From assembly GCA_031413715.1 (NCBI GenBank), contig JANOFO010000010.1:302-64301 (forward strand): a DNA stretch of 64,000 nucleotides, read 5' to 3'. This document shows, one piece after another, positions 3,689 through 43,653 of the stretch. Origin of the DNA: Minisyncoccota bacterium. Its GTDB lineage: Bacteria; Patescibacteriota; Minisyncoccia; Phycocordibacterales; UBA9973. Position 1 is the stretch's first letter; each line of letters starts with the position of its first letter. The notes beneath the pieces were generated by a model. The model did not search any database. It saw nothing but the letters and a program-made list of their open reading frames with translations, and was not told the origin of the DNA. Made by a program: the position numbers and the translations under genes.

Positions 3689-4042
3689 TTAGCGAACGCG
3701 TGCCCCAGGATTGACCTCCCTTTCCGGCACAAGAAAAACCGGCATACCATCAATTCCATCAACTGCCATGAGCATACCATTTGATTCAACTCCTTTTATT
3801 GTGCGGGGTTCTAAATTCACTATATACAGGACTTGCTTGCCTATTAGTTTTTCATATTCTGGATAAAATTCATGGATGCCTGAAACAATCTGTCGTAATT
3901 TTCTATTCCCTTCTTCATCTTTCTCATCAAAATCTATCTGAAAGCGCAAAAGCTTATCAGTCTCTGGCACAGGTTCGACTTCTTTGATCGTCCCTAGCCT
4001 AATATCCATCTTCTTAAATTCTTCGTATGATACGTACTCCAT
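3689..4042 (-). CDS. tRNA-binding domain protein (CsaA / Myf / EMAP-like OB fold)
   Basis: KVGKIVSVE-like core (LGTIKEVEPVPETDKLLRFQIDF...VSGI), ~117 aa. Confidence 0.65.
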   Translation of the reverse strand: MEYVSYEEFKKMDIRLGTIKEVEPVPETDKLLRFQIDFDEKDEEGNRKLRQIVSGIHEFYPEYEKLIGKQVLYIVNLEPRTIKGVESNGMLMAVDGIDGMPVFLVPEREVNPGARVR

Positions 4043-4049
4043 AAATCTA

Positions 4050-5804
4050 TTATATCACTTCCGCTTGATAACACTTTTCGCAGTAAATTTTCTCAGGTCT
4101 ATCGGGAGTATACGGTGTCTCAAATTCTACTTGGCATTTCCCTTTGTGAGAATGATTAGTAAGATCACACATACAAGACCGCTGCCAAAGCTTCCAGGGC
4201 AATGTCCGCTTTGCTTGGCGTTCTGAATGTCGACAGTTGGGACAAAACGTAGGTAATGCGATGCCAAATCGCTTGTAGAAAACAAGTTCTTCTTTGCTTA
4301 TTTTAAATGCATAGGTACAAACTTCATTACATTCTGACTTATGCGCACAAGGCAAAACTTCATTGATTACCGTATCAGGAATATCATTGATCGCATCAGG
4401 GAGATCACCAAGGGTGAGAGTTGGCTGATGTTCTCGTTTGATAGGATCTCGCCAGCGGAATCCTTGGACTAAAACTTTTTCTTTCTCGATGGGAAAAAAT
4501 TCAAATGCTGCACTTTCATTATAAGCAAAGCGAGACAGATTGATTGGAAAATATTCTCCATATTTATAGACCGCTCCATTCCCTTCTATATAAGGCATCT
4601 CATTCATATGAGTGATAATCCTAGGCAGAAGTGCTTCGTATTCCTCTTTTGTATACTGCTTATTTAAAATGCAGTACTCTTTGTGCTTGATACTGGCACA
4701 ACCAAAGCAATTTTTGATATGACTAGGTCCGTCACAGTATGCAACAGTATCGGTATCACCAAGATTGTACGAAAAGAGGCAATGACTATTCCCTCGTCCG
4801 GCAACTGCAAACTCGTACGAAGATTCAGATCGCCCCGACATAGAGAAGTCATAGACATCAACAAGGTGGTTGGTAGTTATCGCTCCATATTTGAGGTTCT
4901 CACAATCTTGAATCGAGAAAGAATGTCGTACGTTTTTAGAATTAAAAATAGAATCACCCGTACAATTTTCAGACTGGAGGATGTTTGCATATTTATGGAT
5001 TGAATTCTTTATCAAGCTTTCATATTCATCATGGAGAGATTCAGCAAGGGATTGTTTACCGAGGCGATATTCAGTAATTTTTTCTTTGTAGGCTTCGGGA
5101 GTATATTGAGTATTGCGAAAAACATATGATTTATTGCGTAGATTAGAGGACATAAAGCAATTCGTGCAATTACTGCAGTCAAACAAGAATTGGGAATCAA
5201 TACACTGATGAGAGCGAGTCAGGGAGATACAGTTATAATTCCCTTTTGAATCAACAAGATCATAGCAGTTCTCGTCTTCGCGTATATTTGTACAGTCCAT
5301 GCACATTCGGTTGCCATTCTCACCTCCCCAAGAATAAAAAATATCTTCAGACCGAACAATCCCATAGGAAAGATATGTCCGTGAACTGCGATATATATAA
5401 TTAGAAAAAATAACTCCTTCGCCATTGTTGTTTTGATGTTCGAGGTGTATCTGAGGAACAGTCTTTAAAAGATCATAAAATTGCTCAAAGAATGGCCTTG
5501 AGAAATCATAGTCACGTCCACAATCCATCGCATCCCAATCATCAGAGAAATAACATTTCGTACAATACACAATAAAAGGAGAATCGGGGTGATACATAGA
5601 AAACATGGGGTCGCTGCAACGAGAACAATCTCGCTTGTAAAGTGATCGATGGTTAAGAGATGCGAGTCTTCGCCTCAATCGACAGTCTGGGCAGAACGTC
5701 GGAGGAGGAACATTCATTTTCGTATAAAAATCAAAATCTTCGGTTTCAATAATGAAATCTCGTTTACAATTCTGACAATTTTTGGTTTCTGGACTCATAA
5801 TCAT
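4050..5804 (-). CDS. cysteine-rich multi-zinc-ribbon protein, unknown function (paralog A)
   Basis: ~35 Cys, mostly in CxxC pairs; N-terminal CQNCK...FYTKMNVPPPTFCPDCRLRRRL and C-terminal FYKRFGIALPTFCPNCRHSERQ ribbons; clear paralog of 41887..43653. Confidence 0.6.
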   Translation of the reverse strand: MIMSPETKNCQNCKRDFIIETEDFDFYTKMNVPPPTFCPDCRLRRRLASLNHRSLYKRDCSRCSDPMFSMYHPDSPFIVYCTKCYFSDDWDAMDCGRDYDFSRPFFEQFYDLLKTVPQIHLEHQNNNGEGVIFSNYIYRSSRTYLSYGIVRSEDIFYSWGGENGNRMCMDCTNIREDENCYDLVDSKGNYNCISLTRSHQCIDSQFLFDCSNCTNCFMSSNLRNKSYVFRNTQYTPEAYKEKITEYRLGKQSLAESLHDEYESLIKNSIHKYANILQSENCTGDSIFNSKNVRHSFSIQDCENLKYGAITTNHLVDVYDFSMSGRSESSYEFAVAGRGNSHCLFSYNLGDTDTVAYCDGPSHIKNCFGCASIKHKEYCILNKQYTKEEYEALLPRIITHMNEMPYIEGNGAVYKYGEYFPINLSRFAYNESAAFEFFPIEKEKVLVQGFRWRDPIKREHQPTLTLGDLPDAINDIPDTVINEVLPCAHKSECNEVCTYAFKISKEELVFYKRFGIALPTFCPNCRHSERQAKRTLPWKLWQRSCMCDLTNHSHKGKCQVEFETPYTPDRPEKIYCEKCYQAEVI

Positions 5805-5831: not shown

Positions 5832-6254
5832 TTATTTCTGGTTCTTTTTATCCAAATATCTCTGCAAGATTAATGCGGCAGCGGACGCATCGACGGATGT
5901 AGCTTCCTGTTTGCTCACTTTGCGAGCATTGTTCACTTCTTTGCCACTTCTCCCCCGTGCTTCGACTGTCGTCATAAATTCTTTTTGAAAATAAATCGGC
6001 AGATCAAGCTCGGCTTCCAAGTTTCTTTTGAATTCTTCTATACTGCCCATAATCTTGTTTGGAGCACCAGAGAGATCATGAGACTCGCCGAGAACTATAC
6101 CTGCAATATTTTCTTCTCCACATATGTTATGAATAGTATCAACAAGTTCCATATTGTTCGGCACAATTTTATATGGAAAAGCCATCGTTCCTCCGTCGTC
6201 TGAAATCGCAATTCCTACTCTCTTTAAACCGTAATCTATAGCTAAATGCTTCAT
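5832..6254 (-). CDS. yqgF: YqgF/RuvX Holliday-junction-resolvase-like pre-16S rRNA nuclease
   Basis: MKHLAIDYGLKRVGIAISD N-terminus typical of YqgF. Confidence 0.8.
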   Translation of the reverse strand: MKHLAIDYGLKRVGIAISDDGGTMAFPYKIVPNNMELVDTIHNICGEENIAGIVLGESHDLSGAPNKIMGSIEEFKRNLEAELDLPIYFQKEFMTTVEARGRSGKEVNNARKVSKQEATSVDASAAALILQRYLDKKNQK

Positions 6255-6310: not shown

Positions 6311-6538
6311 ATGGAAACATTTGGAGTAAGCAACATATGGGTCGTTGTTGTAGCACTAGCGTGGACGCTGCCATGGAAAGGCTATGCACTCTGGACTGCA
6401 TCAAAACAAGGGCACAAAAGGTGGTTTATCGCGCTCATTGTCTTGAATACTTTTGCACTACTAGATATTTTCTATATATTCTATATTGCCAAGAAGACTC
6501 CAAAAGATATCGGTGTCGCGCTAAAGACAAAAGTTTAA
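6311..6538 (+). CDS. small two-TM membrane protein
   Basis: Two hydrophobic helices; no family recognised. Confidence 0.3.
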   Translation: METFGVSNIWVVVVALAWTLPWKGYALWTASKQGHKRWFIALIVLNTFALLDIFYIFYIAKKTPKDIGVALKTKV

Positions 6539-6549
6539 AAATTAAATAT

Positions 6550-6636
6550 GGAAGCGTGGCGGAGTTGGTCTATCGCACTCGTCTTGAAAACGAGAGTCCC
6601 TTTAAAGGACCGTGAGTTCGAATCTCACCGCTTCCG
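6550..6636 (+). tRNA. tRNA-Ser (anticodon TGA), type II with long variable arm
   Basis: Acceptor ggaagcg/cgcttcc, anticodon stem ctcgt/acgag with loop cttgaaa, variable arm gtcc-ttta-aagg-ac, T-arm gtgag-ttcgaat-ctcac, discriminator G. Confidence 0.85.
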
Positions 6637-8199
6637 CAATACTGGTGAAGAGGTGGCGAAAGCCATCTCTCTTCCTTTATCTGCTTGGGTTTTTAGCAGT
6701 TCGTAATCTTGATTCAGCTTCGGTACCCATTCAACCAATAATTGAGCCGCATCTGTATAGAATCTCCTTATTTCAAGCCTGTTTTGCTGTAAGTTCGTAA
6801 AGATTTGAGAAAAGAGTAATCGCTTCTCATCATTGTTAGCTTTCTCATAAATTTCTCGTGCTTTGTACGCGAGTTCATGCACCGCAACTCCTAACTGTAA
6901 GTATTCATCGTTCTTGTCGCCACAACGAACCAGGGCGCTTTCAAGAGCCTCTTCCTCGGTTATCAAATCTCCAATCTTCCTCTCGAAAAATTCTGCTGGA
7001 GCCTCATGATTTATTTTTGCTTCATAGAGCTTATCCTTTTTGGTGCGAACACCTTGGAGTAGTCCATTGATGCGCTTTACGTCATTTTCGCGTTCAGTAA
7101 TCTGCTCACTGTGCTGACTTCTTAAAATATCTTCGATAGCCGAAAGTACACGCTCATCTTTTGGGGCGATGCTATCGAAAATATCAATGAGCTGTAATTC
7201 AACCCTGTCTTCTCGAATACCTGTCTTTTGAGGGCAGTTCTTGAAGGCGGTACTGTTATTACAGTGCCCGTACCAATTACCTTTCTTTTGATACCACGTA
7301 ACCATCCCACCACATCCCTCACAGAAAATCTTGCTCTTAAATAAAGCGTTGTGCTTTTGATACTTTGGATTCTTCATCTGTCGTCTCAAGACAAGTTGCA
7401 CTTTCTCAAAAACATCCCTAGCGACAAGCGACTCGTGAGTGCCAGGGTACACTTCTCCTAGCCATCGTATTTTGCCGATATAGAAAGGGTCTTGGAGTAA
7501 GTTATAGATTCGAGATTTCAATAGCATTTTGCCGCTCGTATTGCGCAATCCAGCATCGTAAAACTCTTTTTCAAGTCTCTTGAGTGAATAATCTCCCGTT
7601 GCGTACAACTCAAACATTTTCTTTATATGCACGGCAACAGCGTCATTTGGCACGTGGATTTTGTGTCCTTTCTCTCCGTCACACCTGTAACCGATAAGTG
7701 GCTTGGCAGGTAATCCACCTTGTGCGATTTTTTCCTTTTGCCCCTTCTTCACTTCTTCTGAAAGATTTGTGACATATTTTTTTGCTAGGACAATTTCAAT
7801 ATCCCATCTGAATTTCTCATCAGATTTGGCATTTTTATGAATGACAAGATTTTGTTTTACAAAATGGATTTGTCTTTCCTCATTAGCCTCAAGCCAATCG
7901 TTGATAGCTAAAGCGTCTTTAAGGTTTCTGGTAAGACGGTCAACTTTTTCGCAAAGGATATTAGTGACTTTATTTTTCTCCGTGAATTTAATCATCTCAT
8001 CAAATACCTTACGTTGCTTTGCTCCGCTTGCTGATTCTGCCATCGAAAATATCTTTACGACGGTCAACTTCTTTTTATTATCAGCATACTCTTTGAGTAA
8101 TTTTTCCTGTGAATCGAGAGAATACCCAGTTTCTTCCTGTTCTCTTGATGAGACTCGACAGTACAGTACGGCTTTTGGTTTTAGTTGGTTAGTAGTCAT
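6625..8199 (-). CDS. large serine recombinase (integrase); its 3' end overlaps the tRNA-Ser 3' end
   Basis: Resolvase catalytic domain (VLYCRVSSREQ, DRLTRN), recombinase domain, zinc ribbon (CEGCGG...HCNN...CP), C-terminal coiled coil; 524 aa. Confidence 0.85.
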   Translation of the reverse strand: MTTNQLKPKAVLYCRVSSREQEETGYSLDSQEKLLKEYADNKKKLTVVKIFSMAESASGAKQRKVFDEMIKFTEKNKVTNILCEKVDRLTRNLKDALAINDWLEANEERQIHFVKQNLVIHKNAKSDEKFRWDIEIVLAKKYVTNLSEEVKKGQKEKIAQGGLPAKPLIGYRCDGEKGHKIHVPNDAVAVHIKKMFELYATGDYSLKRLEKEFYDAGLRNTSGKMLLKSRIYNLLQDPFYIGKIRWLGEVYPGTHESLVARDVFEKVQLVLRRQMKNPKYQKHNALFKSKIFCEGCGGMVTWYQKKGNWYGHCNNSTAFKNCPQKTGIREDRVELQLIDIFDSIAPKDERVLSAIEDILRSQHSEQITERENDVKRINGLLQGVRTKKDKLYEAKINHEAPAEFFERKIGDLITEEEALESALVRCGDKNDEYLQLGVAVHELAYKAREIYEKANNDEKRLLFSQIFTNLQQNRLEIRRFYTDAAQLLVEWVPKLNQDYELLKTQADKGREMAFATSSPVLRKR

Positions 8200-8216
8200 A
8201 AATTTAATAGGGAATG

Positions 8217-8573
8217 TTATTTCTTGGTGAAGTGTCTTGTAAGAAGCACTGTCACAAGAATCGTTATTGTTAAAATAAGCGCGAACACGATTACATTTCC
8301 ATATTCATTTATGCCTACTTGTGAAGGCGCGTTCTCTGCGGTAGTTGTCGGTTGAATTTTCAAGGCATCAAGCTCACTTCGGATTTCTTGGACTTGTGTT
8401 TTCAGTTCAGTATTTTCTTGCTGGAGATTTGAGCTTGGTTGCTGATTCTGCTGTCTTTGATAGTAAGTCTGTATACACGTTTGAAACGCAGCCTCATCAG
8501 TGGTCTTACAACCTGTTGCGGTATCTTGATATTCTTTTTTGAAGTGAAGTAGGGTTGCCATTGTTGCTGGCAC
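8217..8573 (-). CDS. hypothetical Gln-rich coiled-coil protein with C-terminal TM helix
   Basis: ORF only; compositional features. Confidence 0.3.
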   Translation of the reverse strand: MPATMATLLHFKKEYQDTATGCKTTDEAAFQTCIQTYYQRQQNQQPSSNLQQENTELKTQVQEIRSELDALKIQPTTTAENAPSQVGINEYGNVIVFALILTITILVTVLLTRHFTKK

Positions 8574-8940
8574 CTACAGCTATCCATAATGCAAAAAGGA
8601 GTAGCCGAGGAGCCTGCTACCCACAAGATTGAATTGCACGAGGCAACCAATTGCGGAGGTCTCGACTACTCCTTTTCGCCCACAATTGGGGCTTAAAAAA
8701 GCAGAGACCTCGTGCACTGTTCAAAACTTATGGGTAGCATAGTAAGTATAGCAAGATGGCAGGTTTTGGCAAGTCTACTTTTTCAGATGTGGATAACGCA
8801 TCTCTTTGTAGTAGGCGTTGAAAACTTCCATAACAGTGTTTCGGAATTTCTCTGCGGGGCTGATTTCACTCCTAATTACTTTTTTATTTTTTCGCATAAT
8901 TCTAGTTGGTTAAAAATAATAATTACTATAGGGGGCAATT

Positions 8941-10686
8941 TTACCCATCATCAGCCCCAAGGGATGTTAGGGAGCAGAACATGCTGTTTTTACCGCCCTT
9001 CTTTGTGAAAAGCTGTGAGTCCTTAATCATCTCCTCAATGGCGGTCTTGAATGTGGAATGACCTGTTTTTGCACCAGTCTTTTCAACCAATTTCCATATC
9101 TCACTTTTGATTAAAGGTGTTGGCGATGCCTCTAATACTTGTTTAATAGCGACCTTCAACACTTCTTTCTTGCTCGTTTTTCCTTTGCTTCGTCCTCCAT
9201 ATTCAAAGTGCCCCTTAACGCTATCGGAGTGAAAGTTGACTACAAAAGGTTCCATTTCCTGCGCTTCTCGTAATTTATTTTGGTATATAACGACACTGGC
9301 ATCATTGCCTTTTCTATCAACTGCAAGATGACAATCAACCTGCGCAAGAATATCTGATGAGCCACGCATTTCTTGAGACGAGGTGCTAGTATCGTTTCCT
9401 TTCTTACGATGATGGTGTATGACGATGACAGCAATACCATGATTAGTAATTTCTTTTAGAAATTTCATCACTCCGCGCATTTCAGTTGCTGAATTTTCAT
9501 CTGCATTGTGAATGCAATTAAGAGCATCAAAAATGACAAGTTCAATGCTTTTACTTTTGGCATATTCAATGAGTTTTCCTACGCTCTCCTTTGTGAGCAT
9601 AAAATCTTTTTTTGAAGAGATAAAAATAGGCAGCTCTGCATTCTGTAAAAGCAACTTCGCTCTATCTTTCAAAATCCGTGGATGGTTCTCTTCATCAATA
9701 ATTAGCACTGGGCTTTGCCTAGTCTGAAATTCACCAAATACTTTTTCGCCCCCAGCTATCTTTAATGCAATATCCAGAGTAATAAAAGTCTTATAAGACC
9801 TCGGTACTCCAGAAATGATTGTGAGAGCTTCGTGTGGAATCAAACTCTCCACAAGCCACTCTGTATTTTTATATTCAGTCGTAACTAGCTGTGAAAGTGG
9901 TATTGCATCTATGCCACGGCTAGTTTTAGATTCGGTTTTTCCCGCTCTCTGTTTCAACTCTCGATTAGCGATACTGTTGAAGACTGTTTTTAATTCTTTC
10001 TCTGGAAGAGGTGGCTTATTATTTTGATTCCAGCGCTGCATACCAAACCACACCATCTCCCAAGTATCTTCTGGAAGATAGCCAAGCATTTTCCCTGCCA
10101 TCTGCGCCGATACCTCATTTCTACTTCCTTCCAGCACTGGGCTTTCGATGGTGGTTTTCCAGTCGGCAGGTTTTTCATTTTCTTCTTCAAGTACCCATTG
10201 TGGCAGGTCTGCAAAGCTAGAATCATCGGGAGAAATAATCCACTCGTAGTAATTTCCAGATTTGTGTAAGGACGGAGGCATTACTACATATCCGCCATCA
10301 GCGCGGATGTCTACTTTAGGTAAAATACCTCCTCTGGTTTTTACTTCTTTTCCTGGATGTTTATAAAAATAATGCGAACCACCTCGACCTGTTCGTGAGA
10401 CTACCGTAGGCGGTAATTCACGGGAGATACTTTCAGTAGTGTCTATATCCACAACAACAATTCCAGATATAGCGCCTGTAATAACTCCTATGTTTGCTTT
10501 TGGGAATTGCTTAAACCATTCCTCGATTTGTTCCTTTGAAGCACGGGTAGCTTGAAATGGCTTCCATTCTTTAATAAGTGGGGTTTTCCCAGCCCCTCTT
10601 ATTGGAATCACAGAGAATCCCAAGTCGTAATACCGTAGTGCAGCTATTAGGTTTTGGTTGTTATTTTCCATAAAATTATTTGGCAT
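8941..10686 (-). CDS. bifunctional primase-polymerase (Prim-Pol N-terminal domain) fused to a RecA-like AAA_25/DnaB-like ATPase; mobile-element replication protein
   Basis: N-terminal YYDLGFSVIPI...GK.P prim-pol motif; Walker A SGVPRSYKTFITLD and Walker B VLIIDEEN in the C-terminal half. Confidence 0.7.
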   Translation of the reverse strand: MPNNFMENNNQNLIAALRYYDLGFSVIPIRGAGKTPLIKEWKPFQATRASKEQIEEWFKQFPKANIGVITGAISGIVVVDIDTTESISRELPPTVVSRTGRGGSHYFYKHPGKEVKTRGGILPKVDIRADGGYVVMPPSLHKSGNYYEWIISPDDSSFADLPQWVLEEENEKPADWKTTIESPVLEGSRNEVSAQMAGKMLGYLPEDTWEMVWFGMQRWNQNNKPPLPEKELKTVFNSIANRELKQRAGKTESKTSRGIDAIPLSQLVTTEYKNTEWLVESLIPHEALTIISGVPRSYKTFITLDIALKIAGGEKVFGEFQTRQSPVLIIDEENHPRILKDRAKLLLQNAELPIFISSKKDFMLTKESVGKLIEYAKSKSIELVIFDALNCIHNADENSATEMRGVMKFLKEITNHGIAVIVIHHHRKKGNDTSTSSQEMRGSSDILAQVDCHLAVDRKGNDASVVIYQNKLREAQEMEPFVVNFHSDSVKGHFEYGGRSKGKTSKKEVLKVAIKQVLEASPTPLIKSEIWKLVEKTGAKTGHSTFKTAIEEMIKDSQLFTKKGGKNSMFCSLTSLGADDG

Positions 10687-10858
10687 TGTCTTTATTTGAT
10701 TCCTGATGGAGACGCAAATTTATTTTGGCGAGCGTAACGTAAAATGTTGCAAAGTCTTTTAGAAGTTTCTGTATCTCACTTTCAGAACGTCCCACAAATA
10801 CACCCGTCTCTTCAATAGGGATTCGCAGCTTCTCAAGTTGTTGAGCTGTGAATTCCAT
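10676..10858 (-). CDS. small hypothetical protein, translationally coupled to the primase gene
   Basis: Start taken at the internal Met (MEFTAQQ); the upstream part of the annotated ORF overlaps the preceding gene. Confidence 0.25.
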   Translation of the reverse strand: MEFTAQQLEKLRIPIEETGVFVGRSESEIQKLLKDFATFYVTLAKINLRLHQESNKDNAK

Positions 10859-10859
10859 A

Positions 10860-11102
10860 TTATTTGAGGGAATACAATCTATTTTTAAGCTGGCGAAAAT
10901 TTTGAAAAAGCGTTTGAATCGGAACATTAACAGCCTTGTCCTGCCAAAAGTCCTCAATCACTTTCTTGATGTCGTCAGTTGCGGAAAATACAAACTCGAC
11001 CCGCTTTTCGCTGGTTCGCTCCAAATCTAGCAACTCAAATTTGAGTGTGAGCAGCAAGGCTGCCAAGCCAGTGTCGCCGATGAATATCTTTGCGTTTTCC
11101 AT
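10860..11102 (-). CDS. small hypothetical protein
   Basis: ORF in a tight operon with the prim-pol gene. Confidence 0.3.
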   Translation of the reverse strand: MENAKIFIGDTGLAALLLTLKFELLDLERTSEKRVEFVFSATDDIKKVIEDFWQDKAVNVPIQTLFQNFRQLKNRLYSLK

Positions 11103-11254
11103 ACTGCGCCAGCATACTTTGGAGCAGGGTTAGGTTTATACATCAGCTTTGTGAGCCAATAAAAATAAATGATGGATAGCGTTACAGAAGAAAACAGAAA
11201 AATCCACCCATTTTAAGAGTGGCTAACTTTTTGCCTCATTGGGACTAACCCAAA

Positions 11255-11980
11255 TTAAGAGCGTATCACTAACATAAAACCATTTTGTGCCAGAATTTCG
11301 ATTGGTGCACCAATTTTTTTAATAGCATCTCTAAAATCTTGGACGGCATCTCTAACGCTTCGGTCAGTAGTGACTGGCTTATCGTCATATTCTTCGGAAT
11401 TTTTTACAAATTTACCTGCGATTGCCAGCTCCCAGATGGGTTTAAAAGCGCCTTCACGTCCAACAATTCCTTTTTTCTCTATCCGTCGAGCTTCCCACAA
11501 TAAGGCAAACATTTCCCCTCTACCTTTAGCTTTCTGGAATTTATGAAATTTATTACCGTGTGATATGCGACAAGCCTTTTTGTCAAAGAATACAGATACC
11601 TCATTTGTTACTGATTGACTTGTTTCTGGTACTGGCAATTTACTTTTATTTATCAAAATCTCATATACTTCAATATCCTCATCCGTCTGCGTATTTTCGC
11701 GTGCAACAATAAATTCTTTCTTTCCATCCTCTTTAATTTCAAATGTGCCCCAACAATACTTATATTTATTCAAAAAACCCTTCTCTTTAAGACGAAGTAA
11801 GGTGTTACGAGTATCAGGTAGGTCAAAATCTTTGGCGGTTAAGTGCTCAATGGGTACATAGAAAGGATTGGTTTTATAAGTGTGAAAATGCTCGGAAATA
11901 ATCCCCGTAAGCAGTGAGTCTTTTTCTTCGATACTCATCTCCATTTTCATAATTAAAGTCATTATATCAGAATATGCCAA
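11255..11980 (-). CDS. hypothetical protein, possible N-terminal winged-helix domain
   Basis: ORF; helix-rich N-terminus; no confident family. Confidence 0.35.
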   Translation of the reverse strand: MAYSDIMTLIMKMEMSIEEKDSLLTGIISEHFHTYKTNPFYVPIEHLTAKDFDLPDTRNTLLRLKEKGFLNKYKYCWGTFEIKEDGKKEFIVARENTQTDEDIEVYEILINKSKLPVPETSQSVTNEVSVFFDKKACRISHGNKFHKFQKAKGRGEMFALLWEARRIEKKGIVGREGAFKPIWELAIAGKFVKNSEEYDDKPVTTDRSVRDAVQDFRDAIKKIGAPIEILAQNGFMLVIRS

Positions 11981-12027
11981 TACTTGCCACAGGTGAATAA
12001 AAGAGCTACACTACAAAGGCATATCTT

Positions 12028-12222
12028 ATGAAAGAAGAAAAATACTTAACACTAAAACAAGCAGCCGAAAAATTGCATGTAAAGATGCGTACAATTTACC
12101 GTTATGTTGCCGAGAAAGAACTGCGCGCCACAAAAATCGGTTCTTGGAGAGTTGAGGAGAAAGACCTTCAGGATTTTATTGACTCCCGCTCAAACATTGG
12201 GCAACGTAAACGCTCCAAGTAG
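12028..12222 (+). CDS. excisionase-family / MerR-like HTH DNA-binding protein
   Basis: LTLKQAAEKLHVKMRTIYRYVAEKELRATKIGSWRVEEKDL is an HTH_17 excisionase-type helix-turn-helix. Confidence 0.6.
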   Translation: MKEEKYLTLKQAAEKLHVKMRTIYRYVAEKELRATKIGSWRVEEKDLQDFIDSRSNIGQRKRSK

Positions 12223-12228
12223 TCGTCT

Positions 12229-15200
12229 ATGAGTACATCACCCTACAATCGAGGTTCAGAATGGAGGAAGTGGGATTTGCAGATTCACACGCCTGCTTCC
12301 GCGCTAAATAACGGTTTCGGTTCAGACTGGGATACATACTTACAAAAACTCTTCAAAGCAGCAATAAAAGAAGACATTGCTGCGGTTGGTGTTACTGACT
12401 ATTTCCACATCGAGGGATACAAAAAGGTTAAATCTTACCTAGGTGACACCGCCAAGATGAAGGCACTATTTTCCGATGAAGAAAGAGAAGCCATTTCAAA
12501 AATACTTATTTTGCCGAACGTAGAGTTCAGACTCTTTCCAATAAATGGCAGCCGTCTAAATTTTCACGTCATATTTTCTGACACGGTTTCAGAGAGAGAT
12601 ATTGAAGATAATTTTCTTCATAACCTTCACTTCGTTCGGGAAGGTAAACCATTTGAGCCAGATGAAAAGAGCAAGCTTAAAATTGGCAACCTTGAGGAAC
12701 TTGGAAAAAAACTTAAAAGCGAGCATGAGCCTTTCCGAACAGACAGTGACCTATTCGTTGGAATGAAAAATGCCGTAGTTTCCGATGAAGAAATTTCAGA
12801 AGTATTGAGTGCAAGACCATCTGCCTTTGCAGGTAAATACGTGCTAGTAATGCCATGCGATGAGGACTTGAGCACTATTCCCTGGGATGGACAAGACCAC
12901 AACACCCGCAAGAAGATGGTACAAAAAACCAACTTCTTTCTCTCATCAAACAGGAATACTATCGACTGGGGTTTGGGCAAGAAACATGAAAATTCAGAAG
13001 ATTTCAAAAATGAATTCAAGTCTTATAAACCTTGTTTGTGGAGTTCTGATGCGCATGACTTTGATAAATTATTCAAACCCGATGAAAATCGTTTTTGTTG
13101 GGTAAAAGCTGACCCCACGTTTGCTGGTCTTCGCCAAATCATTAACGAACCTGAACAGAGAGCTTTCGTTGGAGAACAGCCCCCAAACTATAAGTATGAC
13201 CATCTAGTCATAGAAAAAATTAGTATCCCCACTTCAAATGGATGGTTTAGTGAAAATCTGGAATTGGAACTAAACAGAGACTTGGTAACCATTATTGGTG
13301 GCAGAGGTTCTGGTAAGTCCGCCCTAGCAGAGATGATTGCCTATGGAGGAGGAAGTTGGAGTGGAGGCGAAGAAGCCTTTGTTACGAAAGCCAGTGACCA
13401 CGCACAGGGTATTGAAGGTACGGAAATTACTCTTACCTGGAGTGATGGGCACACAACCACATTTCGTGTAGGCGAAAACCAGGGCGATGAGAAAAGTATT
13501 CGCTATCTTTCTCAAAACGAAATTGAAAGACTTTGCTCACATAAGAATAGTAAAGTTCTTCTTGAACAGATTGAAAGTGTTATTTTCCAAGCTTTGGATG
13601 AGACCGAACGAATGGGCACCTCATCATTTTCTGAACTCACTTCTAAAACCCTAAAGGGATTTAAATTAGAAAAGGAACAGGAAGTGAGAAAGATAAAATC
13701 TAGCGCAAATAATCTTGCATCACTACTCGAAGCAATACGACAGAAACCAGAAAAAGAGAGAACTCTTAAAGATAAAGATGTTGAGTTGAAAAAGCTCAAA
13801 AAGAGTCTCCCTGAACTTCCCGCAGAAGACAAGAAGGGTCAAGACGAACTTGCATCATTGTTATCATTAAAAACAAAGTTTGATGAGAAAATTATCGGAC
13901 TCCAAGCAAAAATTGCCGACCTTTCTGAAGTTACAACAAAGATAGGTCTTTTCCGTAGTGATGTAACGAAATTCGAGAAGGATGTAAATGTTTCAGTTAA
14001 AAAACTTCTCCCAGACTTTGGCTTATTCGCTGTGGGTCTCGATACTTCGAAGCTTGAAGGAGCAATAAAAAAAGAGAGCGGTGAAGTCGCTGACGCGCTA
14101 AAAGCATTGAAAGAGGGCGACAAAAATAAGAACGCTCAACTTTTGGGTATTGAAGTTGCAGAACTAGTATTTCCGAATGCCACAAAACTTGCAGAGGCAA
14201 TAAAGAAAAAACAGGAAGAAACTAAAGCTTCCGAGACTACTAAAATTAAGTACCAACAACAGAAAAAGACGATTGCTGAACTAGAAGCAGTAATAAAGTC
14301 ACTAGAAGTTGAAATAAAGAAAATCAATGAAGAAAGTCTGCCTGAAAGTGAAAAGGCAAAAGCTGATTGTGTAGAGGCTTATTGTGCATACATCGCTATT
14401 CTTGAACGAGAAAAGACAGAGCTTGAGAAACTTTATGAACCATTACAGAGAAATCTCCAGTCAGGTACAGAAACTAATAAGAGATTGGAATTTGAAGCAC
14501 GTCTTGATTTTGAGGTTGAGAATCATATCGAGAGAGGGTTAGGAATAATTGACCGTAATAAAAAAGGTAACTTTAAAGATAAACCAGCGTTAAAAGAAGC
14601 GTTAGAAAAATTCTGGAGCAATATCAAGAAGGATGGATTTTCCACCACAAAAATAAAGGAAGAGCTTGCCGTTCTTGATTCACAGTTTCAAGTTTATGAA
14701 GGTAAACCACGAGATGTTCAAGAACAACTACGTGCTGGCTACGGCGTGGGAGATTTCTATGAATGGTTATTTGACCCAACAAATGTAGATGTTGTCTCTA
14801 CAATCAATTTTGACAAAACAGACCTCTATCTTCTCTCACCTGGCAAGAAAGGAATCGTTCTACTTATTCTTTTCTTGCAAATAGATGGTGACGATACGCG
14901 CCCACTCATCATAGACCAGCCAGAAGAGAATCTAGACAATCTGTCTGTATACCAAGATTTGATTACTTTCTTCAAGGAAAGGAAGCTTTACCGTCAAATT
15001 TTTATTGTTACTCACAACCCTAACCTTGTAGTTAACACGGATGCAGAGCAAGTAATCGTAGCCAACTATAACGGCACTGGTACACCTCGCATTCAATACT
15101 CTGCTGGGTCACTTGAGAATCAAGCCGCTGAATTGCCAGGTGTTGAACTGGAAGATTTAGAGGACGGCATTATTGAGCAGGTCTGCAAAATTCTTGAAGG

Positions 15201-15267
15201 TGGAGAAACTGCGTTTGAAAGTCGTAAGAGGAAATACGAACTGTCAGTAAAAAGCTTCAAAAAGTAA
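12229..15267 (+). CDS. PHP-domain phosphoesterase fused to a coiled-coil ABC/SMC-like ATPase; Ppl-like candidate anti-phage protein
   Basis: PHP motifs WDLQIHTPAS, VGVTDYFH, NFHVIF, WSSDAHDF; Walker A GGRGSGKS; ~500 aa K/E-rich coiled coil; signature LSPGKKG, Walker B LIIDQPEENLD, H-loop VTHNP. Confidence 0.65.
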   Translation: MSTSPYNRGSEWRKWDLQIHTPASALNNGFGSDWDTYLQKLFKAAIKEDIAAVGVTDYFHIEGYKKVKSYLGDTAKMKALFSDEEREAISKILILPNVEFRLFPINGSRLNFHVIFSDTVSERDIEDNFLHNLHFVREGKPFEPDEKSKLKIGNLEELGKKLKSEHEPFRTDSDLFVGMKNAVVSDEEISEVLSARPSAFAGKYVLVMPCDEDLSTIPWDGQDHNTRKKMVQKTNFFLSSNRNTIDWGLGKKHENSEDFKNEFKSYKPCLWSSDAHDFDKLFKPDENRFCWVKADPTFAGLRQIINEPEQRAFVGEQPPNYKYDHLVIEKISIPTSNGWFSENLELELNRDLVTIIGGRGSGKSALAEMIAYGGGSWSGGEEAFVTKASDHAQGIEGTEITLTWSDGHTTTFRVGENQGDEKSIRYLSQNEIERLCSHKNSKVLLEQIESVIFQALDETERMGTSSFSELTSKTLKGFKLEKEQEVRKIKSSANNLASLLEAIRQKPEKERTLKDKDVELKKLKKSLPELPAEDKKGQDELASLLSLKTKFDEKIIGLQAKIADLSEVTTKIGLFRSDVTKFEKDVNVSVKKLLPDFGLFAVGLDTSKLEGAIKKESGEVADALKALKEGDKNKNAQLLGIEVAELVFPNATKLAEAIKKKQEETKASETTKIKYQQQKKTIAELEAVIKSLEVEIKKINEESLPESEKAKADCVEAYCAYIAILEREKTELEKLYEPLQRNLQSGTETNKRLEFEARLDFEVENHIERGLGIIDRNKKGNFKDKPALKEALEKFWSNIKKDGFSTTKIKEELAVLDSQFQVYEGKPRDVQEQLRAGYGVGDFYEWLFDPTNVDVVSTINFDKTDLYLLSPGKKGIVLLILFLQIDGDDTRPLIIDQPEENLDNLSVYQDLITFFKERKLYRQIFIVTHNPNLVVNTDAEQVIVANYNGTGTPRIQYSAGSLENQAAELPGVELEDLEDGIIEQVCKILEGGETAFESRKRKYELSVKSFKK

Positions 15268-15295
15268 GTCTGCTTTTAATGAAACATCTTTTTGA

Positions 15296-15324
15296 TTGAC
15301 ATATACCCCTAGGGGGTATATACT
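15296..15324 (+). promoter_or_regulatory. sigma70-like promoter (TTGACA-17-TATACT) with embedded CsoR-type operator palindrome ATATACCCCTAGGGGGTATAT
   Basis: Perfect 21-bp GC-tract palindrome at 15301-15321 sits exactly between the -35 and -10 hexamers; the csoR ATG is 8 nt after the -10. Confidence 0.55.
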
Positions 15325-15331
15325 CTTTGGT

Positions 15332-15607
15332 ATGAAATACTTAAACGAAAAAGATAAGGCAAAGATAATTCGCCGTCTTAAACTCATTGAGGGGCAAGTT
15401 CGTGGATTGCAAAAGTTAGTTGAGAATGACACCTACTGCATAGATGTCATCACCCAAACCTCTGCTGTAAAGCAGGGTCTTTCAGGCGTTGAGGATGTTC
15501 TTCTTGAAAACCATCTTGGTCATTGTGTGCGCCATCAAATGTCTTCAGGACAAGTTGATAAGGCGCAAGAAGAAGTGTTGAAAGTTTATAAGCTAAAGCG
15601 CAAATAA
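15332..15607 (+). CDS. csoR: CsoR/RcnR family copper-sensing transcriptional repressor
   Basis: [29 protein letters not shown]...HCVRH, a DUF156 metal-sensor fold; ATG at 15332 rather than the upstream TTG. Confidence 0.8.
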
Positions 15608-15612
15608 ACATT

Positions 15613-17907
15613 ATGAGCCACACAGAGACTTACAAAATAAGAGGAATGCACTGTGCATCATGCGCGGGCATCATTGAAAAAACTCTCAAGAAAACGGATG
15701 GTGTCAGTTCTGTTGAAGCAAACTATGGAACCGAGGCTGCAAAGATTACTTTTGATGAATCAAAGACAAACCCACATCACCTTTCAGAAAAGATAGAGAA
15801 GTTAGGTTATTCACTTATTGTTCCTACTGCCGATGAAATGGGTATGTCTGCCAACGAGCACGCGGCACACCTTGGTTTGAATCAATCAAAGAAAGAAAAG
15901 TTAGCGGAACTTTCAGATATGAAAAATAAAGTCATATCGGTAATTCCTCTTACCATTTTTAGTATTTTCGTGATGGGCTGGGATATTCTTGCTCAATTTA
16001 ATATCGTTTCTGTCGCTCCTTATTTCTGGAGCGAGTTTTTTCACCACCTGTTGCCTCTGATGGCTACCTATACCTTGTTCGTAGTTGGTAAACCGTATCT
16101 TCTGGGTTTTTACCGATTCCTTCGCTATGGCAAAGCAAATATGGATACGCTCATTGGTATTGGTACATCGGTTGCGTATCTCTACAGTTTTATTGTTACC
16201 GCCTTTGAAGAATCGCTCCGACCATTCATCAGTGTTGAGCATACGTACTATGACGTTACGATTGTCGTTATAGCTTTTATTACTCTCGGCAAATATCTGG
16301 AGGCGCGTTCCAAAATTAAAACAGGAGACGCAATTGAAAAGCTCTTAAATCTTCAAGCAAAAACTGCTTTAGTCATACGTGATGGTAAAGAAGTGGAAGT
16401 ACCTATTGACCAGGTGGTTCACGGTGACTTGATTGTGGTTAAACCAGCAGGCAAAATCCCCGTTGATGGCGTACTTACAGAAGGCTCATCATACGTAGAT
16501 GAAGCAATGATTTCTGGGGAACCCGTCCCCGTGGAAAAGAATGTGGGAGACACTGTGGTCGCTGGAACCATCAATACCACTGGCTCATTCACTTTCAAAG
16601 CAACAAAAGTTGGTTCGGAGACACTTCTTGCAGGTATCATCAAAATGGTGGAAGAGGCTCAAGGAAGTCGAGCACCCATACAAGCATTAGCAGATAAAAT
16701 TTCAAGTGTCTTTGTTCCAGTTGTTTTAGTTCTTTCGTTCGTTGCACTCGGCTTATGGATTGCCATTGGAACCCAGTATTTTGGCTTCTCGCAGGCGTTT
16801 TCATACGGCTTGGTGTCGTTTGTGGGAATCCTTGTGATTGCTTGCCCCTGCGCTTTGGGACTTGCCACACCAACAGCAATCATAGTAGGGGTTGGTAAAG
16901 GCGCAAAGGAAGGTATCCTCATCAAAGATGCAGGGACACTGGAAAAACTCCATAAGGTAAATGTGTTGGTTGTAGACAAAACAGGAACCATTACGAAAGG
17001 AAAACCAGAATTAGTATCAATCCAAAACTCCTCTCAAAAAAGTGATGAGGAGCTGGTTTCGTTACTTGCCTCACTTGAAAAAAAGTCAGAGCATCCTATT
17101 GCTCACGCCGTAGTTTCTTATGCAAATGAAAAGAACATTCCTCTGGCATCTGTAAGTAATTTTGACGCTATTAAAGGCAAAGGCTTGAAAGGGATGATTG
17201 AAAACACAGAATACTACGCAGGCAATACGAAGCTCATACAAGACCTCAATCTTTCATTTGATGTTCGTACTCTTGAAAAAGAAACTATGGAAGGCAAAAC
17301 GCCCGTCATTCTTGCAACTAAAGAAAAAGTATTGGGTGTGGTGATGGTAGCTGATGCTATAAAACCAGAAGCGATTGAAGCGGTGTCACGTCTCCATAAG
17401 CTCGGAATTAAAGTAGTGATGCTTACAGGGGATAATAAAAACACAGCAGCGTATGTTGCAAACCAGGTTGGTATTGATGAAGTGATGGCGGAAGTGATGC
17501 CAGAAACAAAATTGAATAAAATCAAAGAGCTGCAATCGCAAGGCAAAATTGTTGCTATGGCAGGTGATGGAGTAAATGACGCTCCTGCTCTTGCCCAGGC
17601 TGATGTTGGTATCGCTATGGCAACGGGAACCGATGTAGCGATTGAAAGCGCAGGCATCACACTTCTTCATGGTGATATTTCAAAACTCGTCAAAGCTGTG
17701 AATCTCTCGAAAATGACAATGCGCGGTATTAAACAAAATCTTTTCTGGGCATTTATCTACAACATTGTGGGTATCCCGCTTGCGGGCGGATTATTCTTCC
17801 CGATTTTTGGATGGCTGCTGAATCCAGTATTTGCAGGTTTAGCGATGGCGTTTTCAAGCGTGTCAGTGGTCGGTAACTCGCTTCGCCTTAAAGCAAAGAA
17901 ATTATGA
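15613..17907 (+). CDS. copA: copper-translocating P1B-type ATPase CopA
   Basis: N-terminal [15 protein letters not shown] motif (ACPCALG), [13 protein letters not shown]. Confidence 0.9.
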
Positions 17908-18296
17908 TTTCAAATAAATTAAAAACTATATTTGCGGTTTCTATACCAGTTTTCATAGCTCACGGAATAGAGGAGTATTTTACTGGTTTATATAATGTTG
18001 ATTCTTTCTATCAATCTTTTTCTAATCCCAAACTGGTATTTGTTATTATGGTTCTTCTTTTAGCAAATATGCTACTGATAGTTTCTTATTTTCTTGTCTT
18101 AAAAAACAAATGGGTGTTTGGATTATCAGTTTTACTTGGACTAGCCCTGATTTTTGAATTAGTTCACATTTACGAAGCTATCAAGATAGGGGGATATTAC
18201 TCTGGATTATATACCGCATTGATTTTTCCAATCGTAGGGTTTCTGCTTTGGAAAGAATTATTCAAACATTATAAAGGTCGGAAATTATTAGCTTAA
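17904..18296 (+). CDS. membrane protein (4 TM), unknown; part of the cop operon
   Basis: Hydrophobic ORF overlapping the copA stop. Confidence 0.35.
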
Positions 18297-18309
18297 CTAA
18301 AAAATTATT

Positions 18310-18531: not shown

Positions 18532-18549
18532 TCACACCACCACGAAACT

Positions 18550-19569: not shown

Positions 19570-19581
19570 TATAATTACTTT

Positions 19582-21274: not shown

Positions 21275-21391
21275 ATGAAGATAGTATATCAGAAGACTGA
21301 CTCACATGCCTCAGCTAGGCACTCCAAAACATGCTAAAATACCCTTACAAAGGTTACAGTATATATAAATACGAAGAGCCTATTGATAAAC

Positions 21392-41886: not shown

Positions 41887-43653
41887 TTAGATTACTTCTT
41901 GTTGATAACAACCTTCACAATAGACAATTTCTGGTCGATTCGATTCATAACTTGTCTGAAACTTATTTGGACATCTATTTTCATGATTATGTTTCAAAAC
42001 TTCACACATACATTGTCTACTCCAGAGTTGAATTGGGTTTCTAAGTTGTACTCTATCGTTATGTCTACTGTTAGGACATTTACGAGGAATAGGTAAATTC
42101 ATTCTTTTGTAAAAAGATAACTCCTGAGGAAGGATTTTAAATGCTTTTGTGCAGTTATGATTCATAGCTTGCACTGAATCCGTATCCCAAGATTCACATA
42201 ATATAATGTCATTGATTATATTATCTTCTGTTTCTTTTATAGTATATGGTAATTCGTTCCATGACTTAGTAGGGGTATAATTCTTCTCTCCTGTTTCTTT
42301 CCATTGATACCCCTTATTTTGTGCTTCATTTTTATCTAATGGGAAAAACTCTTGCGCAGTGGATTCATTATACGAAAATGAAGAAAGTTCCAATGGGAAG
42401 AATTCTCCATACTGATATTCTCGTCCGTATGAATCAATATAAGGCATATCTTTCATATGTTGGCGAATTTTAGGTACTAATTCATCATATTCTTCCTTAG
42501 AATATTGTTTATTCAAAATACAGTACTGCTTTCCTCGTACTCCGATACAGCCAAATAAATGGGCAGAACTTGCTATACCGTAGCAATACTCTACATCGCG
42601 AACATTTGAAACTGCCTGCACTGTAAACCTGACATTTGCACCGCCATCGCCAAGCAATAGTGTTTCATATACCATTTCAACATTTTCTCCATACTCAGTA
42701 TAGTCATAACAGTCTCTTGAAGTTTTTGTGCTTGCAAATTGACAGTATTTGCAATCTTCAGCACCAACCATCTCATAAGACACAAGGGTATTTTTAGAAT
42801 TCTGTATATAGTCACCAGAACTATTTACATTATTTCTACTATGCATGTACTTCTGTGGATACTTTAGCCAGAGTTCTTGGGCTTCTTTATAATACTTCTG
42901 GATATTTTGGTAATTTGATAAGTCTAATTCTTTCAGTTTCTCTTCGTAATCCTCTTTTGAATACTGCTGATTAAAAATACAATATTTTTGATTTCGTAGA
43001 TTTACACACCCTACGCAATCTGTACAGTTCATGCAATTCTTTGAAAAGTAGATGTTTGAACATTCTTCACAATCCACTGAGTATAAATTTTTGTAGCCTT
43101 TTGTAATGTTTACTGACTCATAACACAAGTCTGATTTTTGGAGCATTAACACATCTTGACTGTCATTGGACATCTTTAATCCACTAGCATACATGCACCT
43201 CTCATTATGATCAGCATGGAATACCATATAACAATTCTTGAGATATCCGGCAAGATTATTATAATCACTATCAACAATAGTCTGATAATGAAGAAAAAGA
43301 CTTTGTACTGCCGCTTTTTCTTGCAATTCTTTTAACTGTTCAAAGAAAGGTTTTGAGAAATCGTAATTTGTTCCACTCTCAAGTTGATCCCAATTATCAC
43401 TCCACCAACATGCAGGACAGAAGACTTTTCTATTTACATTTGGTCCATACACAGAAAGTATGTCCTTATTACAGAGTCCACAAATACGTTTATATAAATA
43501 GCGTTCATTTCGAAAGACTAGTCTTCTTACAAGTCTGCATTCCGGACACCATGTTGGTGAAGGAACTTTTATCTTTTCGTAAAATGAAAAATCATCAGAC
43601 TCAATATTAAAGGAATTTTTACAGTTTTGGCAGTTCCGAGTTTTTTGATCCAT
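41887..43653 (-). CDS. cysteine-rich multi-zinc-ribbon protein (paralog B)
   Basis: Same architecture and conserved blocks as 4050..5804 (CQNCK..F.IE..DF.FY.K..VP.PT.CP.CRL.RRL ... CILNKQY[TS]KEEY ... CE.CYQ.EVI). Confidence 0.6.
   Translation of the reverse strand: MDQKTRNCQNCKNSFNIESDDFSFYEKIKVPSPTWCPECRLVRRLVFRNERYLYKRICGLCNKDILSVYGPNVNRKVFCPACWWSDNWDQLESGTNYDFSKPFFEQLKELQEKAAVQSLFLHYQTIVDSDYNNLAGYLKNCYMVFHADHNERCMYASGLKMSNDSQDVLMLQKSDLCYESVNITKGYKNLYSVDCEECSNIYFSKNCMNCTDCVGCVNLRNQKYCIFNQQYSKEDYEEKLKELDLSNYQNIQKYYKEAQELWLKYPQKYMHSRNNVNSSGDYIQNSKNTLVSYEMVGAEDCKYCQFASTKTSRDCYDYTEYGENVEMVYETLLLGDGGANVRFTVQAVSNVRDVEYCYGIASSAHLFGCIGVRGKQYCILNKQYSKEEYDELVPKIRQHMKDMPYIDSYGREYQYGEFFPLELSSFSYNESTAQEFFPLDKNEAQNKGYQWKETGEKNYTPTKSWNELPYTIKETEDNIINDIILCESWDTDSVQAMNHNCTKAFKILPQELSFYKRMNLPIPRKCPNSRHNDRVQLRNPIQLWSRQCMCEVLKHNHENRCPNKFQTSYESNRPEIVYCEGCYQQEVI

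Follow-up and report, generated by a model that had tools for sequence, protein, structure and literature searches.

The zf_Tbcl (PF13451) and zf_Tbcl_2 (PF23477, equal to TIGR04272 of NCBIfam) domains are small putative zinc-binding domains of the treble-clef and ribbon kind, the function of which is not known; the described members are single small domains or C-terminal tags, and the CxxC-x17-CxxC domain of small proteins from Methanosarcina mazei binds zinc (Zn) as measured by inductively coupled plasma mass spectrometry (PMC12704099). Parallel β-helix proteins, such as MfpA/Qnr, the TibA passenger, AlgE4, pectate lyases and phage tailspikes, have stacked parallel coils in common, organized as 5x4, 6x3 or ~22 residues. 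The antifreeze protein of Tenebrio molitor (TmAFP) is a secreted, disulfide-bonded, ice-binding protein of 84 amino acids (aa) that forms a 12-residue Cys-rich β-helix (TCTxSxxCxxAx) with a TxT face. Type IV coupling proteins (T4CPs; VirD4/TraD/DotL) are served by substrate adaptors, for example, IcmS/IcmW/LvgA on DotL. In Patescibacteria, 5,713 VirD4-like T4CP homologues have been counted in 2,918 genomes, and with only 148 of them near virB4, they are mostly orphans lying far from that gene (PMC12102498). Here we describe two paralogous genes, A and B, from a stretch of 64,000 nucleotides (nt) of a Minisyncoccota bacterium (contig JANOFO010000010.1; the window hereafter). The building blocks of their products (treble clef, CxxC-x17-CxxC ribbon and β-solenoid) are known, but the whole protein, its solenoid geometry, the arrays of its genes and their linkage to an ATPase match no described family.

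4050..5804, minus strand: gene A, an open reading frame (ORF) of 584 aa with 34 cysteines, subtype 'c' (ORF list, subtype clustering).
41887..43653, minus strand: gene B, the 588-aa paralogue with 32 cysteines and the architecture of A, subtype 'a', the commonest.

Both belong to a very large, unnamed family of ~580 aa proteins, invariant in architecture and known only from Patescibacteria, and its genes are linked, in searches from either side, to that of an orphan VirD4-like ATPase that has one Zn domain in common with the family proteins. The two ORFs lie exactly where an initial annotation, made from the letters of the window without database searches, had placed them, and its count of roughly 35 cysteines apiece and its view of a paralogous pair with common architecture and long conserved blocks hold as well. 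By BLASTP, A and B align end to end over 598 columns with 38% identity and 57% positives (E = 5e-142), and the score of their global alignment stands 52 standard deviations over 200 shuffles of B. The annotation had named a likeness confined to cysteine spacing as the outcome that would overturn it. Identity remains at 37.2% without the Cys-containing columns, and there are identical blocks free of Cys, such as PFFEQ; the similarity is thus true homology over extended blocks, beyond Cys spacing, and the E value together with the identity outside Cys columns led us to reject a chance or low-complexity resemblance. The motifs listed by the annotation are correct overall, except that its C-terminal 'CP.CRH' reads CPNCRH in A and CPNSRH in B. 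No third copy was found in the window by tblastn. Translation of A probably begins at the third codon (Met at 5798), for a product of 582 aa, in line with the 100% identical database protein (P0001, 582 aa) and its homologues.

A word-indexed search returned at least 7,219 significant relatives; the best 120, at 553-654 aa (for the most part 570-600), align over 95-100% of the query. When 1.84 billion representatives at 50% identity were scanned exhaustively with a profile, at least 5,039 clusters passed E <= 1e-3, among them 2,081 with E <= 1e-30; the majority of the top 150 have 520-612 aa and near-full-length matches, the shorter entries appearing truncated. In a set with a single genome for each GTDB species, we counted at least 573 stretches coding for relatives. 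The organism labels are those of Paceibacteria/Parcubacteria-type Patescibacteria (Nomura-, Jorgensen-, Giovannoni-, Lipton-, Staskawicz- and Brenner-bacteria, Minisyncoccia), and the many 'uncultured Ca. Saccharibacteria' labels, which appear generic, were not relied on. This taxonomic confinement and the presence of multiple copies agree with the lineage-specific family proposed in the annotation. A contig labelled Burkholderiales (L036, JAMPXW010000002.1; loci are cited here by such numbers) carries family genes with ATPase, DnaJ and CysRS in the typical Patescibacteria order and is probably mis-binned or mis-labelled. Except for a partial match at the end of one contig, IMG/VR yielded no viral relatives, and among PHROGs A matched none and B only two without known function (E ~0.008-0.01); on these grounds we rejected a phage origin.

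The relatives are already present in databases, those with a name being entered as 'hypothetical protein', 'Uncharacterized protein' or 'Zinc-binding domain-containing protein', and literature searches found no published description of the family, which the annotation had likewise been unable to place. Pfam zf_Tbcl aligns to residues 7-46 of A with 16.5 bits (E = 0.008), under the gathering score of 24 bits; B is without a Pfam match, and TIGR04272 reaches only 9.8 bits in B (E = 0.63) against a cut-off of 36. Among 45 family members, 13 match zf_Tbcl at E <= 0.1 (best 0.0016) and 17 match zf_Tbcl_2 (best E = 6.4e-6), A not being among the latter. No full-length match was obtained in Pfam, NCBIfam, PHROG, PADLOC or PDB, and no catalytic family or motif was recognized in the same collections.

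The body plan, assigned with high confidence, has a Zn module at either end; between these follow, in order, a β-solenoid of 12-residue coils, a helical hairpin, another solenoid and an acidic α/β domain. The parts of A and B are given below with the evidence for them, which includes AlphaFold2 (AF2) models scored by the predicted local distance difference test (pLDDT); pI is the isoelectric point.

5541..5789, minus strand: A residues 6-88, N-terminal Zn module, treble clef C10-x2-C13-x24-C38-x2-C41 (zf_Tbcl-like) and ribbon C60-x2-C63-x17-C81-x2-C84 (zf_Tbcl_2-like).
5103..5423, minus strand: A residues 128-234, β-solenoid 1, about eight 12-residue coils in which every third position is part of a Cys/Ser ladder (periodicity, AF2 strands).
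4980..5102, minus strand: A residues 235-275, helical hairpin joining the solenoids, the most variable segment (AF2 helices 236-246 and 251-267).
4653..4979, minus strand: A residues 276-384, β-solenoid 2, ending in FGC369...YC378ILNKQY (periodicity, hhalign, AF2).
4359..4652, minus strand: A residues 385-482, long helix and conserved acidic α/β domain, pI ~4.7 (invariant columns, pLDDT 87-96).
4053..4358, minus strand: A residues 483-584, C-terminal Zn module, treble clef C486/C496...C521-x2-C524 and ribbon C544-x12-C557-x17-C575-x2-C578.
43396..43644, minus strand: B residues 4-86, N-terminal Zn module with C8, C11, C36, C39 and C58, C61, C79, C82 (A-B alignment, Cys conservation).
42961..43278, minus strand: B residues ~126-231, solenoid 1, with a complete CxxCxxCxxC coil (C207, C210, C213, C216) at its end.
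42502..42837, minus strand: B residues ~273-384, solenoid 2 (A-B alignment, Cys conservation).
41890..42195, minus strand: B residues ~487-588, C-terminal Zn module (A-B alignment, Cys conservation, hhalign), its treble clef having Ser for the fourth Cys.

Profile-profile matches obtained with hhalign prove that two internal duplications underlie this plan. The N-terminal module (6-88) matches the C-terminal one (482-582) with 99.7% probability (E = 1e-25), which bears out the earlier description of a ribbon repeated at both ends of the protein, and the solenoid unit 134-243 matches 283-393 with 99.9% probability (E = 2e-37), the controls giving 3% and 1.6%. In all likelihood the protein is one compact body produced by these duplications of Zn modules and solenoids. 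The full-length AF2 model, built on an alignment of 45 sequences, is a single body with a pLDDT of 82.6 and a predicted template modelling score (pTM) of 0.84; the ends and residues 380-584 reach 77-96, and residues 120-235 and 270-385 about 70, with short strands every 12 residues. In a domain model of residues 118-400, the solenoid blocks rise to 80-87 and form continuous parallel ladders with a period of 12 residues. Consistently, in an alignment of 171 sequences, hydrophobic residues recur with a period of 12.0 and Cys/Ser with a period of 3.0 in both solenoids, and neither period appears in the control region 385-485, so that each coil consists of four x-x-[C/S] units. The stacked, regularly repeated coils of a parallel β-solenoid are therefore recognizable in the predicted 12-residue strands, in the periodicity and in the β-helix proteins that head the PDB matches of the domain model. 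Foldseek searches with that model retrieved exclusively parallel β-helix proteins from the PDB (E = 3e-3 to 4e-2), at TM scores of 0.10-0.15 and root-mean-square deviations above 15 Å, whereas the full-length model retrieved nothing (best E = 5.8), sequence and profile searches of the PDB gave no match, and a search of BFVD gave small zinc-ribbon proteins only. The α/β domain, recognizable by the motif MPY.D..G..Y.YGEFFP...YNE[ST].A.E.FP, matched no family and no PDB entry.

The terminal modules repeat the spacing of the zf_Tbcl and zf_Tbcl_2 domains, C-x2-C-x24-C-x2-C followed by C-x2-C-x17-C-x2-C, but occur as two tandem pairs flanking a core of ~400 aa. In A, the two CxxC knuckles of the first treble clef (C10/C13 and C38/C41) have the expected spacing and AF2 predicts a strand-strand-helix unit at 6-30; the CxxC-x17-CxxC spacing is found at C60/C63/C81/C84 in A and C58/C61/C79/C82 in B, and again in the C-terminal C557-x17-C575-x2-C578 of A. 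Scored in the 171-sequence alignment, the first site (C10/13/38/41) is conserved at ~100% and the C-terminal ribbon (C544/557/575/578) at 99-100%; the C-terminal treble clef (C486/496/521/524) is conserved at 86-99%, its last position being the one absent from B, and the second site (C60/63/81/84), with the exact CxxC-x17-CxxC, is complete in 64% of the sequences. These four terminal Cys4 sites are likely structural zinc sites, and we infer that family proteins bind zinc.

The description of the family as multi-zinc-ribbon proteins is thus apt for the two terminal modules, but the dense central CxxC pairs to which it also referred belong mostly to the period-3 Cys/Ser ladder within the solenoids. 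Conservation is high only at the end of solenoid 1, where C201 and the run C210-x2-C213-x2-C216 precede a NLRNKSYVFRN cap in A (C201/210/213/216, 85-99%; position 219, 58% C and 42% S), and at C369 and C378 of solenoid 2 (96% and 81%); the remaining central columns hold 30-56% C and swap with Ser. Most other central cysteines are, we are confident, small residues of a very narrow solenoid core, interchangeable with Ser. Possibly, C201/C210/C213/C216 with position 219 form a fifth site that caps solenoid 1; only these and C369/C378 are left as candidate central ligands. We rejected extra zinc ribbons or Fe-S clusters for most of the central columns in view of the C/S swapping, the period of 3 and the lack of a Fer4 match: the central motif reads C-x8-C-x2-C-x2-C(-x2-C/S) with no CP, in contrast to the CxxCxxCxxxCP of [4Fe-4S] ferredoxins.

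No described β-helix offers a close parallel to this geometry. The coil of 12 residues with Cys/Ser at every third position sets the family apart from the known parallel β-helix proteins, to which it has no sequence similarity; the period of 5 or 6 of pentapeptide-repeat and hexapeptide (LbH) proteins is absent, there is no match to the Pfam Pentapeptide or Hexapep families, and Foldseek TM scores to MfpA and Qnr are 0.09-0.12. The likeness to TmAFP lies in geometry only, namely the 12-residue coil that turns a small residue (C/S/A) into a narrow core at every third position, but the family is cytoplasmic, swaps Cys with Ser and has no TxT ladder, and no antifreeze protein was matched in the PDB profile search. 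For the double solenoid with a 12-residue Cys/Ser ladder and duplicated Zn modules, the PDB searches matched no solved structure. The protein has no transmembrane segment and no signal peptide, and family members are predicted to be soluble and cytoplasmic. The pI is 8.1-8.5 for the Zn modules, 5.2-6.1 for the solenoids, 4.7 for the α/β domain and ~6.3 for the whole protein.

The surroundings of family genes were studied in 81 loci, namely L001 and 80 stretches of GTDB species genomes, each of 13.7 kb if its contig was long enough. Two or more copies, all co-directional, are held by 46 of them, with up to at least eight copies per fetched stretch, and the median copy-to-copy spacing is 8 nt; the arrays are operon-like. 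In a Brennerbacteria metagenome-assembled genome (GCA_043799565.1; L088, 3261-18789), nine tandem co-directional family genes with 4-nt overlaps occupy ~15.5 kb, preceded by DUF8128, a 178-aa ORF, a VirD4-like ATPase and CutA1 and followed by IF1-L36-S13. For Patescibacteria, which have genomes of ~1 Mb and have shed most biosynthesis, the retention in some of up to nine copies (~15 kb) is a striking investment, the more so for a family of thousands of clusters that has neither a name nor a model and on which no publication was found.

These copies are ancient. Adjacent ones have a median identity of 41% (range 28-68%, n = 89), none exceeding 70%; among the 130 copies from loci with several of them, 96% have their nearest counterpart in another genome rather than in the same locus; and the order of subtypes recurs, for example, e-d-(a)-b after grpE. 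These data led us to reject recent lineage-specific expansion and concerted evolution, and the duplications appear to be ancient, with the subtypes stably retained. It follows that the family is not currently expanding, contrary to what the annotation had read from the pair in the window: A and B are only 38% identical to each other, have closer relatives elsewhere (60% and 49% identical, respectively) and occupy conserved syntenic positions. The ratio of within- to between-subtype identity is 1.47 in the solenoids, 1.43 in the hairpin and 1.27-1.34 in the other regions, and the hairpin has the lowest identity both within and between subtypes.

Reciprocal searches connect these genes to an ATPase. 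In related genomes, a soluble P-loop ATPase of the VirD4/TraD/HerA-like kind recurs beside the family (TrwB_AAD_bind, DUF87 and TraG-D_C matches, with every named equivalog below threshold). Its short form has ~490 aa; the long form, of 680-750 aa, contains a CxxC-x17-CxxC ribbon scoring above cut-off (zf_Tbcl_2, E = 3.5e-12; TIGR04272, E = 5.7e-13) and is the only other protein of the window and loci to share the Zn modules. The VirD4-like ATPase is found in 20 of the 81 family-centred loci, usually directly adjoining. The reverse test started from the ATPase in 80 metagenome loci (ATPase identity 60-93%), of which the 53 of at least 8 kb were counted: 43 hold a family gene, within 2 kb in 41 and within 300 nt in 25. 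With about two T4CPs per genome, one is expected in a random 12-gene neighbourhood ~3% of the time.

This reverse linkage appears in two contexts. In the first, the typical gene order, with [F] denoting a family gene, is S11-S4-RpoA-L17-L13-S9-GrpE-[F]n-(CutA)-PaaX(-)-DnaK-x-ATPase(long)-[F]-ATPase(short)-DnaJ-[F], so that the ATPase unit often sits inside a grpE-dnaK-dnaJ cluster; in the second it is sigma-like/HARE-HTH - DUF8128 - 178 aa - ATPase - (CutA) - [F]n. All eight GrpE loci have GrpE immediately upstream of the array, DnaJ is one or two genes away in seven of seven, and CutA1 and a PaaX_M-like regulator recur besides GrpE, DnaK and DnaJ. The gaps are short (GrpE-F, -32 to 76 nt; ATPase-F, mostly 1-66 nt; DnaJ-F, 29-43 nt). 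A membrane protein of ~437 aa homologous to DUF8128 also recurs near family genes and is fused to the ATPase in L086 (13434-16157) and L078 (9059-11824), in proteins of 907-921 aa; such Rosetta-stone fusions suggest a membrane-anchored, coupling-protein-like unit. The long ATPase (L056, 2130-4394, and eight other loci) has after its ribbon a low-complexity, Pro/Lys/Glu-rich tail of 200-300 aa that ends in a conserved ...EVPEDVLRKILE motif.

As a tentative reading, possible rather than probable, A and B may be non-enzymatic, Zn-stabilized binding scaffolds or adaptors for the VirD4-like ATPase. The mildly basic, conserved Zn modules and the α/β domain would dock to a common machinery, and the two solenoid faces with the hairpin, the most subtype-specific parts, would direct each paralogue to a separate target. 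That shared machinery would most likely be the orphan VirD4/TraD-like coupling ATPase with its DUF8128 membrane partner, because both are encoded right beside the family arrays of related genomes and the long ATPase has the same CxxC-x17-CxxC ribbon; the DnaK system is another possibility. Together, the paralogues could then supply an ATP-driven translocation or remodelling machine with a range of regulators or of selectors for cargo or clients. The adaptors of known T4CPs offer a parallel, in that family genes lie beside the ATPase in both search directions and paralogues with differing surfaces would suit a repertoire of selectors; on the other hand, the family is unrelated to known adaptors in sequence and fold, type IV secretion system (T4SS) channel genes are not found nearby, and the ATPase is sub-threshold for named T4CP equivalogs. 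More speculatively, and in our view unlikely as a whole, the family, DUF8128 and the orphan ATPase would make up a Patescibacteria-specific machine independent of the T4SS channel, with up to nine or more Zn-stabilized double-solenoid proteins as its selectors or cargo, and would use ATP to translocate or remodel them or their clients. If so, this would explain the roughly two 'orphan' coupling proteins kept by thousands of Patescibacteria and tie them to the host-dependent lifestyle. In any case, the linkage provides a concrete, testable handle on widespread orphans that the 2025 survey left unexplained. A functional link would define a new cellular machine within a large and little-understood section of the bacterial tree; even otherwise, the family is one of the larger uncharacterized lineage-defining families and a good structural and biochemical target.

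Several observations weigh against the adaptor interpretation. The functional case consists of gene neighbourhood and one shared small domain, and synteny in streamlined, related genomes is 'sticky' and does not amount to independent evidence. The GrpE proteins of the eight GrpE-linked loci are 65-79% identical, so these loci come from a narrow clade. Many family genes stand in unrelated housekeeping contexts (RuvX/tRNA_bind, PEMT/SpoU, SecY-Adk-Map, the last as SecY-Adk-[F][F]-Map in L086), and both copies of the window occupy housekeeping slots likewise; each is a single copy at a conserved position of another kind, the ATPase is encoded beyond the 64 kb, and DnaK, DnaJ, GrpE, CutA and DUF8128 are not encoded within it either. 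The contrast in subtype specificity between the solenoids and the other domains is modest, the solenoids are modelled with a pLDDT of only ~70 at full length and 80-87 as a domain, and the geometry of the Zn sites is predicted.

The best surviving alternative, which we nevertheless consider unlikely, is that family members are nucleic-acid-binding factors, the four Zn knuckles with their conserved arginines gripping RNA or DNA and the solenoids serving as spacers or mimicking DNA. The maturation of rRNA or tRNA would be one setting, the handling of DNA together with an FtsK/HerA/VirD4-type ATPase another. The basic Zn modules and the invariant R42, R525, R529 and R542 would suit such a role, but the whole protein is acidic to neutral, its α/β domain strongly so in the acidic direction, and no known nucleic-acid-binding fold or family was matched in Pfam, NCBIfam, PDB or Foldseek searches. 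Genes for RuvX, tRNA_bind, a SpoU methylase and tRNAs neighbour A and B in the window, and some arrays lie in or beside ribosomal-protein operons; however, housekeeping neighbours are the default expectation in a genome of ~1 Mb. The partner ATPase belongs to a family that includes DNA translocases, with sub-threshold matches to TraD and CedD, and CxxC-x17-CxxC ribbons have been treated in the context of transcription (PMC12704099). Up to nine divergent paralogues, by contrast, are hard to reconcile with one nucleic-acid substrate.

Rather less likely still, the family proteins could be cargo, that is, a repertoire of effectors that the DUF8128/VirD4-like ATPase would feed into an export route leading to the host on which these episymbionts live. 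The neighbourhood evidence is identical to that for the adaptor reading, and arrays of paralogues downstream of a coupling-protein gene resemble effector clusters; moreover, Patescibacteria are host-dependent and a T4SS is essential in Saccharibacteria (PMC12857230). Yet the T4CPs mostly lie away from virB4 and proved dispensable in Ca. S. epibionticum (PMC12102498), and no channel genes were seen in the loci. The proteins themselves make doubtful effectors: they carry neither a signal peptide nor a transmembrane segment, their subtypes are ancient and conserved rather than fast-evolving, and a compact body with about four predicted Zn-stabilized knuckles and a high pTM is a poor fit to export that depends on unfolding.

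We think it improbable that the family acts in zinc or redox proteostasis, as a Zn-Cys holdase or co-chaperone of Hsp33/DnaJ-like logic or as a zinc buffer, co-expressed with DnaK-DnaJ-GrpE and CutA. About 22 conserved cysteines in four or five Cys4 sites recall the zinc centres of the DnaJ zinc finger and Hsp33, arrays are interleaved co-directionally with grpE, dnaK and dnaJ, and CutA1 directly adjoins in several loci. However, the DnaJ motif CxxCxGxG (PF00684), present in the neighbouring bona fide DnaJ, is absent from A, B and 45 relatives, none of which has a J domain or a match to Hsp33. The loss of the second Zn site in one-third of the members would be odd for a metal store, and the chaperone linkage is confined to a narrow clade, the ATPase linkage being broader. 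Finally, an anti-phage or conflict system, in which the paralogues would be a sensor repertoire working with the HerA/VirD4-like ATPase, is very improbable, for despite the multiple copies with variable surfaces, a weak match of the ATPase to HerA_antiphage (E = 2.6e-4, far under cut-off) and a Fic gene adjoining B, PADLOC-DB gave no match at E <= 0.1, effector domains (nuclease, NADase, protease) and viral relatives are lacking, the loci are core and syntenic rather than islands with copies that are ancient orthologous subtypes, and Fic is missing from the syntenic loci L011, L029 and L033. The probability left over by these five explanations goes to something else.

In the window, A lies in a packed one-strand cluster of RuvX, A, tRNA_bind, DedA/VTT and PilM, with the following immediate neighbours.

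5832..6254, minus strand: RuvX/YqgF gene, 27 nt upstream of A (Pfam RuvX, E = 1e-28).
3689..4042, minus strand: tRNA_bind (CsaA/EMAP-type) gene, starting 8 nt past the stop of A (Pfam tRNA_bind, E = 7e-22).

RuvX and A probably form one operon. A is of a minor subtype, and its nearest relative is the third of three tandem copies in L001, an array that lies between RuvX and tRNA_bind as A does; the order RuvX-[family gene(s)]-tRNA_bind also recurs in L010 and L049. B, the nearest relative of which is 49% identical, lies between tRNA-Lys and the Fic gene. The genes flanking B (PEMT-like, 213-aa ORF ... SpoU) are shared with L011; L008, L029 and L033 have only SpoU in common with it. The Fic/DOC-family gene (40855-41739, minus strand) separates B from the SpoU methylase and looks like a local insertion, because in L011, L029 and L033 SpoU directly follows the family gene without Fic. 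Scans for promoters and terminators near A and B were at chance level.

Beyond RuvX, tRNA-Ser(tga) (6550-6637, plus strand) is overlapped at its 3' end by a large serine recombinase gene (6625-8199, minus strand), followed by a Prim-Pol/PriCT/AAA_25 primase-helicase (8941-10686, minus strand) and an SMC/AAA_23-like ORF of 1012 aa (12229-15267, plus strand). This is probably a mobile element integrated at tRNA-Ser, spanning 6550-10686 and possibly extending to ~15267; no att direct repeat was found within 6400-26000. We rejected the idea that A and B are cargo of a mobile element or linked to a tRNA, a tie that the initial annotation had suggested checking: the tRNA-Ser island stands beyond RuvX and is missing from the syntenic loci L001, L010 and L049, and no att repeat was found.

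Farther along, ~10 kb from gene A, the window encodes a heavy-metal P-type ATPase with an HMA domain (15613-17907, plus strand). Upstream of the B locus lie genes for a full-length PolA (45723-48215, minus strand) and for a 664-aa protein with a DUF11 repeat (48633-50627, minus strand).

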